From Akkermansiaceae bacterium (GTDB lineage: Bacteria > Verrucomicrobiota > Verrucomicrobiia > Verrucomicrobiales > Akkermansiaceae): a stretch of 39,785 nucleotides of DNA. Each line of letters starts with the position of its first letter. Position 1 is the stretch's first letter. Location of the stretch: positions 1-39,785 of the forward strand of contig JAKMEV010000241.1 in the NCBI GenBank assembly GCA_022425785.1. Reading direction: 5' to 3'. The position numbers were made by a program, and so were the translations under genes. Of this stretch, positions 31,474 to 34,318 are shown piece by piece. Under the pieces are notes generated by a model. It made no database searches and had not been told where the DNA came from. It saw only the letters and a program-made list of their open reading frames with translations.

Positions 31474-31944
31474 ATGGCCGCCCCAAAAACAGTCGCCGAA
31501 CCTCACAAGGAACTCCGCTTCACCCGCGCCGGACAGGCTCAGGGTATGTTCGTTGGGGCCACCGTGGCCTTCGCCTTTACCCTTCTTATCACCATCACCT
31601 GGTTTATGGGCCACCCGGATTTCCGTTGGTGGATGCCTCTTCCTTTCCTCGTCTTGGCCTGGCTCCTCGCCAGAGTCGCGCTCCATTGCACCCGCCACGC
31701 CTACATCATCCTCACTCCGATGGGTATCGAGATTTTCCCGCTCCTCAAGCCGGAGAAAAATCTCAGTCTGATCTACTGGACCGAACTCGATCACGCTGAT
31801 TTCAACGAAGACCTCACGCTCGCCAAAATCCACCGCGATGCCGAAGAAAGCTCTGGCGCGGTCCTTTCCCTGAAGCCCATCCTCGCAAAACAACGCCCCC
31901 TCCTCAAGAAAGCCCTCGAAGGCCGCCTCGCGGAAAAAGCCTAA
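31474..31944 (+). CDS. Membrane protein, two TM helices plus a bacterial PH-like (YdbS/YdbT-like) domain
   Basis: A TM hairpin (FVGATVAFAFTLLITITWF / WWMPLPFLVLAWLLARVAL) is followed by a ~80-aa soluble domain. Its stop overlaps the selB stop (CTAA, 31941-31944). Confidence 0.55.
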   Translation: MAAPKTVAEPHKELRFTRAGQAQGMFVGATVAFAFTLLITITWFMGHPDFRWWMPLPFLVLAWLLARVALHCTRHAYIILTPMGIEIFPLLKPEKNLSLIYWTELDHADFNEDLTLAKIHRDAEESSGAVLSLKPILAKQRPLLKKALEGRLAEKA

Positions 31945-33884
31945 CCTCGAGGAACCAAAGTCCGATAGTCACCGTTCCGAATGGTGACCCCATCCCGGTC
32001 CAGACGATCCAGCAGCGGCATGATCACCTTTCGTGAGGTATCCAGCTCCTGCCGTAATTCCGAAACCGTGGCCTGCCCGCTCTTCTCGAGGAACGCAATC
32101 ACCTTGGTCACCGTGGCTTGAAACACCCCGGCACTCACGGTCACCTTGGGTTCCAGCGGGATAATCTGTCTCGTGCGCGACAGGAACTTATAGGCCGCCG
32201 TATGCGACGGTGTCCCCTGCAGCTCACCCGGAAGCGGCGGATTCAATCCGGCATTGTCGAGGGTCTTCAAAATCTCCGCCGCCGGCGCTTCCAGCTCGGG
32301 AGGAAGTTCCAGCGAGTGCGAATTGTGGCAGATCAAGTTATCTCCCACTTTGAAATTCTTCTCGCTCAACTGAACCAACAAGGCATCGAGCAGTCCCGGG
32401 ATTCCCATCGGAGCTCCCATACTCTTCTTAAACAACTCCGTCGTCATGCCAATCTGATCCGGATGCTTCTTGTGATATTCCTGCACCAGCTGAGAGCTCT
32501 CTTTGACCAAGCCTTTCCAGTAGGGAGCGAACGAAAGATACTTCTCGCGCAAAGCCACCACCTCATTGGCTTTCGTCATCTTCTTCAGGGCCGCCTTAAT
32601 CCCGGCTGGCGAGAATGGCAGCGCTTGAACCAAGTCTGCTTCAGTCAGGAAATGATCCCGAATCAAATGCGTTCGCAACAAAAGCTGCAAATCATCAGGC
32701 GCGGTCGCCCGCTCGGTCAGGAAAAGCTGTCGGTCCGCGCCCCTGAAATTCCGCCGCGAAGGATGCGTATCAAGAATGGTCCCTCCCGCAATCGTGGCCT
32801 CCCCCGAAAGCTCGCGAATAACAATCCGCTCTCCTACAAAACTATGCACCGGATGATCAAAGCGTAGCTGCGCGATCGTTGACTCGCCGGGATGCAAGGT
32901 ATTCCCCTCCGGAAACAAAACCCGTGCCTGCGTTCTCCCCGATCCATGGTGCACATAGATGCGATGATTCGATTTCAAGGGTCGCAGTGTTCCCTTCTGC
33001 CCCGGAATGGGACGAACCGAACGAATCAACTCCGCATCCACCTCATAAGATGCCTCAGCCAGCGATCCTCCCACGAGAAGATTCCCCCGCGAGACGCCCT
33101 TCTTGCCTTTTGACGTCAGCGGAAGGTCAGGGAGATTGAGCGCCGTCCGCATTCCCGGCATGGCATGATCCACCGACGAGGAATGGTTTTGAATGGCACG
33201 CACACTCGTCTTCAAGCCCGATGGATAGGTAATCAAGGAATCTCCTGTTTTCAACTCCCCACCGGCCAATGTCCCCGTCACCACCGTGCCCACGCCCTTG
33301 GGCGAAAAGGCCCGGTCCACCGCGAGACGAGGCTGGCCGAAGTCCCGGGGTGCCGGCGTTTCGAGGAGGACCTTGGCAATCGTTTCTTTCAAGGTATCCA
33401 TGCCGAGGCCTGTCGGCGCCGACACCGGAATGATGGGCGCCCCCTCCAAAGCAGTTCCCTGAAGATCATCCGCGAGCATCTCGGTCACGAACTCCAAATC
33501 CTCGCAAAGATCCGCCTTGGTCAGGGCAATGATAAAATTGCCGATCCCGAGATAGCTCAAAATCTGTAAGTGCTCCTCCGACTGCGGCATCCACGAATCA
33601 TCCGCCGCCACCACAAAGATCCCCAGGTCAATCGAACCCACGCCCGCGACCATGTTGTTCACGAAGTCGGCGTGCCCCGGGACATCCACCACTCCGAGTT
33701 CGAAGGTATCATCCGATGTCTTGGGCACCGGTAGAGAAAAATGCGCAAAACCCAATTCAATGGTGACCCCACGTTCCTTCTCTTCCGGGAGTCGATCGGG
33801 ATTGGTTCCAGTGAGAGTTTGGACCAAGGTCGACTTTCCGTGGTCGATGTGGCCGGCCGTGCCGATGATATAATTGCGGGACAT
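31941..33884 (-). CDS. selB: Selenocysteine-specific translation elongation factor SelB
   Basis: The N-terminus IIGTAGHIDHGKSTLVQTLTGTNPDRLPEEKERGVTIELGF closely parallels E. coli SelB ([40 protein letters not shown]). It also has DVPGH, ALTKADL and RLAVDRAFSPKGVGTVVTGT. Its 647-aa length includes C-terminal winged-helix domains (SELRQELDTSRKVIMPLLDRLDRDGVT). Confidence 0.93.
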   Translation of the reverse strand: MSRNYIIGTAGHIDHGKSTLVQTLTGTNPDRLPEEKERGVTIELGFAHFSLPVPKTSDDTFELGVVDVPGHADFVNNMVAGVGSIDLGIFVVAADDSWMPQSEEHLQILSYLGIGNFIIALTKADLCEDLEFVTEMLADDLQGTALEGAPIIPVSAPTGLGMDTLKETIAKVLLETPAPRDFGQPRLAVDRAFSPKGVGTVVTGTLAGGELKTGDSLITYPSGLKTSVRAIQNHSSSVDHAMPGMRTALNLPDLPLTSKGKKGVSRGNLLVGGSLAEASYEVDAELIRSVRPIPGQKGTLRPLKSNHRIYVHHGSGRTQARVLFPEGNTLHPGESTIAQLRFDHPVHSFVGERIVIRELSGEATIAGGTILDTHPSRRNFRGADRQLFLTERATAPDDLQLLLRTHLIRDHFLTEADLVQALPFSPAGIKAALKKMTKANEVVALREKYLSFAPYWKGLVKESSQLVQEYHKKHPDQIGMTTELFKKSMGAPMGIPGLLDALLVQLSEKNFKVGDNLICHNSHSLELPPELEAPAAEILKTLDNAGLNPPLPGELQGTPSHTAAYKFLSRTRQIIPLEPKVTVSAGVFQATVTKVIAFLEKSGQATVSELRQELDTSRKVIMPLLDRLDRDGVTIRNGDYRTLVPRG

Positions 33885-33892
33885 TGGGTGAA

Positions 33893-34111
33893 CTACGGCG
33901 TGACGATATCAGCAATTCGCGCTTTTTCAAAATCGAAGGGCGTCATTTCTAAAGCGACCTTCACCCCCACCACCAACTCGGGCTTGCGCGGATTCATCGC
34001 CTTCGCCGGATGCCCGATCACTTCCTTGCCATTAGGCAGACGCACCGTGAAGGCACGGTCGCTCAATACAGCGAGAATCTCACCAGTCGTCGTAATCGGT
34101 TCCACAGGCAC
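33893..34111 (-). CDS. Divergent IF-1-like S1/OB-fold protein (72 aa), translationally coupled to selB
   Basis: GTG start. It is the same length as E. coli IF-1 and aligns over G..L..L....F.V.L.NG..V..H...K M....G.KV..E.TP.D..K.RI (about 30% identity). The basic KMRKNYIRI segment is replaced by KAMNPRKPELVV. Only 8 nt separate its stop from the selB ATG. Confidence 0.65.
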   Translation of the reverse strand: MPVEPITTTGEILAVLSDRAFTVRLPNGKEVIGHPAKAMNPRKPELVVGVKVALEMTPFDFEKARIADIVTP

Positions 34112-34213
34112 GGCGAAAGAGTGAAGAGAGAAAAGGGAAATGTGAAGTGAACTAACTCTGAATCCGATTTTTCATCAATCAGTCATCGCGAATAGAATGA
34201 TGATGCTAGGGGA

Positions 34214-34312
34214 ATGGCAAGCCAACTCTGGCCCCTCTGGGTCGCGCCGATCATGGGCGGCGTCATCGGAGCCCTCGTCTATAAGTTCATTAGCTCGGAG
34301 GATTCCGTGTAA
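34214..34312 (+). pseudogene. 3'-terminal relic of an aquaporin/MIP channel gene
   Basis: The third forward frame reads MASQLWPLWVAPIMGGVIGALVYKFISSEDSV*. This parallels the last TM helix and C-terminus of AqpZ (..QLWFFWVVPIVGGIIGGLIYRTLL..). A stop codon and non-coding-looking sequence lie directly upstream. Confidence 0.5.
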
Positions 34313-34318
34313 CTCACT

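Follow-up and report, generated by a model that had tools for sequence, protein, structure and literature searches.

We analyzed a 39,785-nucleotide stretch of DNA, hereafter the window, from an Akkermansiaceae bacterium (assembly GCA_022425785.1, contig JAKMEV010000241.1). Our subject is a pair of adjacent minus-strand genes within it: selB, whose product delivers selenocysteinyl-tRNA (Sec-tRNA) to the ribosome, and the small gene directly upstream, here termed IF1L, which encodes a divergent paralogue of translation initiation factor IF-1. The pair had been singled out in an original prediction made from the sequence alone, which placed a 72-residue protein of the IF-1 fold 8 nucleotides upstream of selB. 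Coordinates, spacing and the IF-1 fold were all borne out, and every detail of that description that could be checked proved accurate. Positions of the pair and of the features around it are collected in Table 1.

Table 1. Features of the IF1L-selB locus and other open reading frames (ORFs) of the window.
Feature	Position	Strand	Remarks
IF1L, 72-residue divergent IF-1 paralogue (S1-like fold)	33893-34111	-	GTG start, TAG stop
IF1L-selB junction, 8 nucleotides	33885-33892	-	No Shine-Dalgarno-like motif; coding-strand sequence TTCACCCA
selB, full-length, 647 residues	31941-33884	-	ATG start; TIGR00475 and Pfam domains
Upstream intergenic region, 207 nucleotides	34112-34318	-	Putative promoter and leader for the IF1L-selB pair; opposite strand holds the aquaporin remnant
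Terminator-like hairpin, weak and uncertain	31895-31913	-	Just 3' of the selB stop; within the convergent ORF
Convergent 156-residue ORF	31474-31944	+	
Aquaporin/MIP C-terminal remnant, 33 residues	34208-34303	+	RGMASQLWPLWVAPIMGGVIGALVYKFISSED; in-frame stop before it
RpiB/LacAB and serine hydroxymethyltransferase ORF, 564 residues	34319-36013	-	
Giant CotH kinase-domain protein, 1715 residues	13926-19073	+	

The downstream gene encodes a full-length bacterial SelB. Its product scored 291.6 bits on the NCBIfam equivalog TIGR00475, above the cutoff of 242.25, and carries the Pfam domains GTP_EFTU, Beta-barrel_SelB, SelB-wing_2 and SelB-wing_3, that is, an EF-Tu-like GTPase, domain 2, a beta-barrel and the C-terminal winged helices. 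Alignment with E. coli SelB in its ribosome-bound form (5lzb chain z) covered residues 6-523 and 600-640 and showed the motifs GHIDHGKS (GHxDHGK), DVPGH, TKAD and AVDRAF (AxDRAF) to be kept. Equivalog score, GTPase motifs and the SECIS-binding winged-helix extension at the C-terminus all agree with the assignment. The window is collinear with metagenome-assembled genomes (MAGs) of marine Akkermansiaceae/Verrucomicrobiaceae at 93-96% nucleotide identity.

The absence of selA, selD and tRNA-Sec from the window, also part of the original prediction, was confirmed. No large ORF of the approximately 40-kb window contained a SelA or SelD/AIRS Pfam domain, ARAGORN found no tRNA gene in the window, and Rfam gave no match there. 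Around the pair, ARAGORN likewise detected no tRNA-Sec in any of 162 fetched loci. The 156-residue ORF that converges on selB overlaps it by 4 nucleotides at the stop codons (31941-31944), appears hydrophobic by eye and had no Pfam or PADLOC match; a PADLOC search for defense functions was equally negative for IF1L and SelB. The hairpin 3' of selB represents 1 site against 2.6 expected in shuffled sequence and is not significant alone.

IF1L is a real, structured protein-coding gene. The ratio of nonsynonymous to synonymous substitution rates (dN/dS) of the window gene against its relatives was 0.06-0.13, and the start codon and an N-terminal MPxEPI motif are conserved across the family. An AlphaFold2 model computed from a 21-sequence family alignment had a mean predicted local distance difference test score (pLDDT) of 90.5. 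It consists of five strands, the third and fourth of which are connected through a short helix, the S1-like oligonucleotide/oligosaccharide-binding (OB) fold of bacterial IF-1 (InfA; 1AH9, 1HR0 chain W), a protein that IF1L also resembles in its length of about 70 residues. When the model was compared with the PDB by Foldseek, bacterial IF-1 structures came first (4ql5, 2n8n, E. coli 30S IF-1, 1hr0 chain W), with template-modeling (TM) scores of 0.82-0.88 and root-mean-square deviations of 1.5-1.9 Å, and eIF1A/aIF1A followed.

The sequence also places IF1L in this superfamily. It passes the Pfam PF01176 (eIF-1a/IF-1 S1-like) threshold by a small margin (31.6 bits, cutoff 30.2). Gap-free alignment gave 36% identity over 61 residues to E. 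coli IF-1 and 30% identity to B. subtilis IF-1; the original prediction had put the identity at about 30%. The basic ribosome-contacting segment of IF-1 is replaced, as had been pointed out: GKMRKNYIRILT of IF1L aligns opposite AKAMNPRKPELV of the reference.

IF-1 is among the most conserved translation factors and is usually encoded by a single copy. On the infA equivalog of NCBIfam (TIGR00008) IF1L scored 38.2 bits and fails the cutoff of 61.15, and six other members of its family scored 27-56 bits, compared with 88-97 bits for canonical IF-1 of the same lineage. No NCBIfam model claims IF1L, and public records name its members 'translation initiation factor IF-1', 'S1-like domain-containing protein' or hypothetical. 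In an exhaustive phmmer search with IF1L, the closest canonical IF-1 proteins shared the core VLAGTMFKVxLxxGHEVLAHISGKMRKRFIR, preceded by a long, basic extension at the N-terminus. When one of these, the protein of Akkermansia muciniphila, was used as the query in turn, canonical IF-1 was retrieved from many Verrucomicrobia.

That IF1L is a paralogue distinct from the housekeeping infA, as originally suspected, is established by three related genomes in which both genes occur. MAG JB023 (GCA_030673895.1) has IF1L on JAUTCR010000058, followed by selB after a gap of about 126 nucleotides, and canonical IF-1 on JAUTCR010000035. In Rubritalea tangerina KCTC 12907, IF1L lies beside selB on JBHUJB010000036 and canonical IF-1 on JBHUJB010000049, while Haloferula rosea (GCA_016595525.1) has the two about 6 kb apart on the same contig, JAENII010000002. 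By the example of these relatives, the window's own organism probably has a second, canonical infA. No canonical infA was detected by tblastn in the window or the fetched loci, all matches being IF1L itself, and three abundant canonical IF-1 proteins looked up with the window's sub-clade in view (P0254, P0229 and P0236) come from assemblies other than those that supplied IF1L loci. IF1L and canonical Verrucomicrobial IF-1 formed separate clades in a neighbor-joining tree, in which the selB-linked IF1L sequences fell into three clusters interleaved with unlinked ones, at the poor resolution given by 72 columns. In several lineages canonical infA is a divergently oriented neighbor of rplM-rpsI, outside the spc/alpha ribosomal cluster; IF1L is not found beside rplM-rpsI. 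The canonical Verrucomicrobial proteins (L081, L082, L175-L195) have a basic N-terminal extension of about 30-130 residues and a total length of 103-203 residues.

Contacts of IF-1 with the ribosome have been mapped by nuclear magnetic resonance and modeling on structure 1HR0: K39 and M42 touch the 530 loop, R41 and R46 touch the flipped bases A1492 and A1493, residues H35, Y60, R64 and R66 face S12, and the C-terminal arginine is important in E. coli IF-1 (PMC10913371). We compared these positions between 117 canonical Verrucomicrobial IF-1 cores and 154 IF1L sequences. K39, R41, R/K46 and F/Y69-R70 were essentially invariant in the canonical proteins and variable or acidic in IF1L, in which M/K42 is also lost and the C-terminal tail is absent. 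The window's IF1L has A, N and E at the positions of K39, R41 and R46, and its tail is missing. Both families conserve N28-G29, H35, G50, E56, P59, Y/F60, D61, R66 and I67. Each has invariants of its own: H30 in canonical IF-1, and in IF1L a K at position 30, F62 in place of L/T62 and an acidic residue at 63. The selB-linked IF1L subgroup has an invariant E63-K64 (DFEKARI), and this DFEK motif is unchanged in IF1L proteins at the same locus where the adjacent selB is absent. Canonical IF-1 is basic, with a median isoelectric point of 9.5, whereas IF1L is neutral to acidic (6.8 for selB-linked members, 5.7 for the others).

Within the IF1L family, sequence varies most in the loop and helix corresponding to those with which IF-1 reaches between helix 44 (h44) and the 530 loop. 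Because the contact residues are lost and the inserting elements vary most, canonical A-site binding by IF1L is unlikely. Although IF1L has the fold and passes the broad Pfam model, we did not file it as an IF-1, given its failure on the infA equivalog, its loss of the contact residues that define the factor and the separate housekeeping infA of its relatives.

The adjacency of IF1L and selB is conserved. A scan of one genome per GTDB species yielded 74 loci with close IF1L relatives, all but two of them from Verrucomicrobiota and mostly from Akkermansiaceae, including Roseibacillus, Rubritalea and Persicirhabdus. The two exceptions are MAGs labeled Crocinitomicaceae and Thermodesulfobacteriota; their loci match the Rubritalea arrangement, and these MAGs may be mis-binned. 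In 64 of the 74 species genomes, selB lies directly 3' of IF1L on the same strand. Across the linked loci, the SelB proteins are between 97% and 44% identical to that of the window. The flanks of the pair vary, and one identical IF1L protein occurs in differing upstream contexts.

The junctions between the two genes are short. The original prediction saw no room for a promoter in the 8 nucleotides of the window. Among the relatives, 48 of 65 measured junctions were 15 nucleotides or less. Real overlaps of 4-11 nucleotides, most commonly 8, were present in 16 of the 65; a seventeenth 'overlap' of 73 nucleotides, in locus L016, looks like an ORF-calling artifact. A Shine-Dalgarno-like motif preceded only 1 of 61 selB starts. 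Such motifs preceded 10% of ORF starts in the fetched Verrucomicrobial loci, compared with 13% of random sequence, and translation initiation in these genomes is evidently largely independent of Shine-Dalgarno pairing. The lack of a motif before selB is therefore not special in itself, since enrichment is absent throughout these genomes.

Promoter searches gave no clear site. The 207-nucleotide region upstream of IF1L contained no significant sigma-70-like site on the minus strand. A search for an internal selB promoter returned 3 sigma-70-like sites against 1.1 ± 1.1 expected, and the two weak matches, within the 3' end of IF1L and across the junction, were unconvincing. From the junction pattern we infer the signature of a co-transcribed, translationally coupled bicistron.

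The IF1L family extends well beyond selB. Ten of the 74 close relatives, Persicirhabdus sediminis KCTC 22039 among them, had IF1L without selB in the fetched DNA, and in six of these ten a LuxE-like acyl-protein synthetase and a LuxC-like acyl-CoA reductase are encoded upstream of IF1L. The same luxE-luxC-IF1L order also precedes selB in Rubritalea and some Roseibacillus; the arrangement is thus found with and without selB, and IF1L therefore persists at a locus from which selB is absent. The exhaustive phmmer search also recovered many further, divergent IF1L clusters that share LPNGK and [LM]TP[FY]DF motifs and lack SGKMRK. A metagenome scan with an alignment of these clusters left 80 loci, 68 of them with enough downstream DNA, and selB was adjacent in 1 of these 68. 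Named members of the divergent set belong to Haloferula, Luteolibacter, Roseibacillus and unnamed Akkermansiaceae/Verrucomicrobiales, so that IF1L would be a broad Verrucomicrobiales family (Akkermansiaceae in the broad sense), as far as the named matches indicate.

Other neighbors of IF1L differ among loci. In 39 of the 154 loci of both subfamilies, the gene just before IF1L, in the same orientation, is luxC, with gaps mostly of -8 to +53 nucleotides; the luxE-luxC-IF1L loci (L041-L047, L057, L058, L063, L072-L078, L087-L161) have short or overlapping junctions. Apparent LuxC-IF1L fusions, with gaps of -213 to -219 nucleotides, were tblastn alignments that ran through an in-frame stop; the genes are in fact about 24 nucleotides apart. 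Neither luxC nor luxE occurs anywhere in the window's 40 kb. Pyruvate carboxylase follows IF1L in Haloferula rosea. Genes for prephenate dehydrogenase and for a small, divergently encoded protein also recur as neighbors, as does mnmE in convergent orientation.

The surroundings of the pair in the window showed further features. The aquaporin remnant between IF1L and the next gene upstream shares 48% identity with a MIP gene that is intact in L003, a related locus; this relic points to an earlier deletion or rearrangement at the site. The ORF beyond it joins an RpiB/LacAB ribose-5-phosphate isomerase domain (residues 15-150) to a complete serine hydroxymethyltransferase (158-533) and appears to be an rpiB-glyA fusion. 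The giant protein combines CotH kinase, lamin-tail, Fn3-associated and chitobiase C-terminal domains. In related loci its 1697-residue homologue stands directly upstream of IF1L (803-5896 in L001/L002), whereas in the window the giant gene is 15 kb away.

We put at about even the chance that the link between IF1L and selB is mainly one of shared expression and not a dedicated partnership in Sec decoding, and this is the explanation that we favor. IF1L would be a lineage-specific, neofunctionalized IF-1 paralogue that keeps the OB fold and, because the basic residues that grip the 30S A site are lost, most likely does not act as IF-1; its role is probably that of a small nucleic-acid- or protein-binding OB-fold factor. 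In the marine lineage formed by the window's clade, Roseibacillus and Rubritalea, selB would be the second cistron of an IF1L-selB transcript. Its transcription most likely starts at the promoter of IF1L, and its translation most likely depends on ribosomes that reinitiate after terminating at the IF1L stop codon, because the junction has no space for a promoter, has no Shine-Dalgarno motif and is often overlapping. Co-transcription and reinitiation are here inferred from sequence only. The window's clade would since have lost luxE-luxC from the upstream side, where the aquaporin relic now lies in the intergenic region.

Several observations weigh against explaining the pair by shared expression. 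IF1L and selB were kept together down to 44-48% SelB identity while all other neighbors changed, and such lasting gene pairing is common where two proteins act in concert. The functions of both genes lie in translation. In addition, the surface of IF-1 that faces S12 (H35, Y/F60 and R66, with K64 in the selB-linked group) is conserved in IF1L, and for this reason the protein may retain some contact with the ribosome.

These observations would fit a different role, in which the marine-lineage IF1L is a true accessory of Sec decoding that binds SelB, the Sec-tRNA or selenocysteine insertion sequence (SECIS) element, or the ribosome near S12. It might, for example, prime the A site or hold off release factor 2 (RF2) at UGA, with the operon keeping the two proteins at a fixed ratio. 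The conserved adjacency across deep SelB divergence and changing flanks, the frequent overlap of stop and start, the invariant E63-K64 of the selB-linked subgroup with its conserved S12-side face, and the descent of both proteins from translation factors speak for such a role. We nevertheless consider it unlikely. The family is widespread without an adjacent selB, and IF1L stays at the same locus without selB, its DFEK motif unchanged. The contacts to the 530 loop, h44 and A1492/A1493 are lost from a protein that is neutral to acidic. Moreover, the canonical IF-1 site overlaps the position of A-site tRNA, and therefore a protein bound there could not occupy the ribosome together with Sec-tRNA. 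The comparative-genomics papers on selenium utilization that were checked name no such candidate.

The original prediction had offered, as speculation, a dedicated A-site-binding accessory to Sec decoding, and this part of it was not supported. The tests that the prediction had named for its own refutation came out in its favor, but the wider evidence weighs against the function. The family is far wider than the link to selB (adjacent in 1 of 68 divergent loci and not in 10 of 74 close relatives), the luxE-luxC link is equally tight where it occurs, and the A-site contact residues are lost family-wide. A further proposal, that IF1L of marine Akkermansiaceae was recruited as a SelB cofactor in UGA recoding through its S12-side face or by direct binding to SelB, seems to us unlikely. 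If true, IF1L would add a first trans-acting protein to SelA, SelB and SelD in bacterial Sec insertion.

IF1L could instead work with the LuxE/LuxC pair, the ancestral operon being luxE-luxC-IF1L and selB merely appended to it. Such a tie would account for the same-strand luxE-luxC found directly upstream in both subfamilies, mostly at close distance, and for the six selB-free loci that keep luxE-luxC-IF1L. We regard it as improbable, since 115 of the 154 loci have no luxC beside IF1L, the window itself has neither lux gene, no genuine LuxC-IF1L fusion exists among the loci, and the IF-1 fold has no obvious biochemical role in fatty-acyl reduction.

We give still less credence to the notion that IF1L is an alternative, condition-specific IF-1 that continues to work on the 30S subunit. 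The fold match (TM about 0.86), the retention of H35, G50, Y/F60, D61, R66 and I67, and the public records that label the protein 'translation initiation factor IF-1' are what such a factor would be expected to show. The scores on the infA equivalog lie below the cutoff throughout the members scored, however; K39, R41, R46 and the C-terminal F/Y-R, all invariant in the lineage's canonical IF-1, are lost, and variability within the family peaks in the loop and helix that enter between h44 and the 530 loop. Finally, that the adjacency reflects chance or annotation error and the small ORF is not a gene, as its shortness, GTG start and bare passing of the Pfam threshold might suggest, is already refuted by intact orthologues in 74 species genomes and all 80 kept metagenomic loci, by the low dN/dS, by the confident structure prediction and by an N-terminus conserved from the predicted start, and can practically be dismissed.

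The locus can be set beside known systems. In the E. coli-type selAB operon, selA is directly upstream of selB. Here, too, a short operon ends with selB, which follows closely on the gene before it; unlike in selAB, that gene is an IF-1 paralogue, and selA, selD and tRNA-Sec are absent within 40 kb.

The protein itself has two partial counterparts. IF-1 and cold-shock proteins are structurally alike and reportedly partly interchangeable in B. subtilis. IF1L shares with the CspA family a small size (about 70 residues), acidity and an OB fold, a functional analogy only, and differs from it in matching PF01176 alone and having no Pfam cold-shock-domain match. The other counterpart, eIF1AD, is a eukaryotic paralogue of eIF1A (PMC6122471). 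Like eIF1AD, IF1L is a duplicated, diverged copy of the universal IF-1/eIF1A OB-fold factor; the likeness is one of analogy only, eIF1AD being eukaryotic and independently evolved.

In the literature searched, there was no IF-1 paralogue and no link between IF-1 and selB. The IF-1 fold and selB are known; what is new is an undescribed family of IF-1 paralogues and a non-classical selB operon. The finding exposes an annotation problem, in that some public records call these proteins IF-1 even though they fail the curated infA model. The IF1L-selB bicistron offers a simple system for studying how selB is expressed when detached from selA, and a test case for extra proteins in bacterial selenocysteine insertion. 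A widespread second IF-1 that is under strong purifying selection and has lost the A-site contacts would point to an undescribed function of this fold across a bacterial order.

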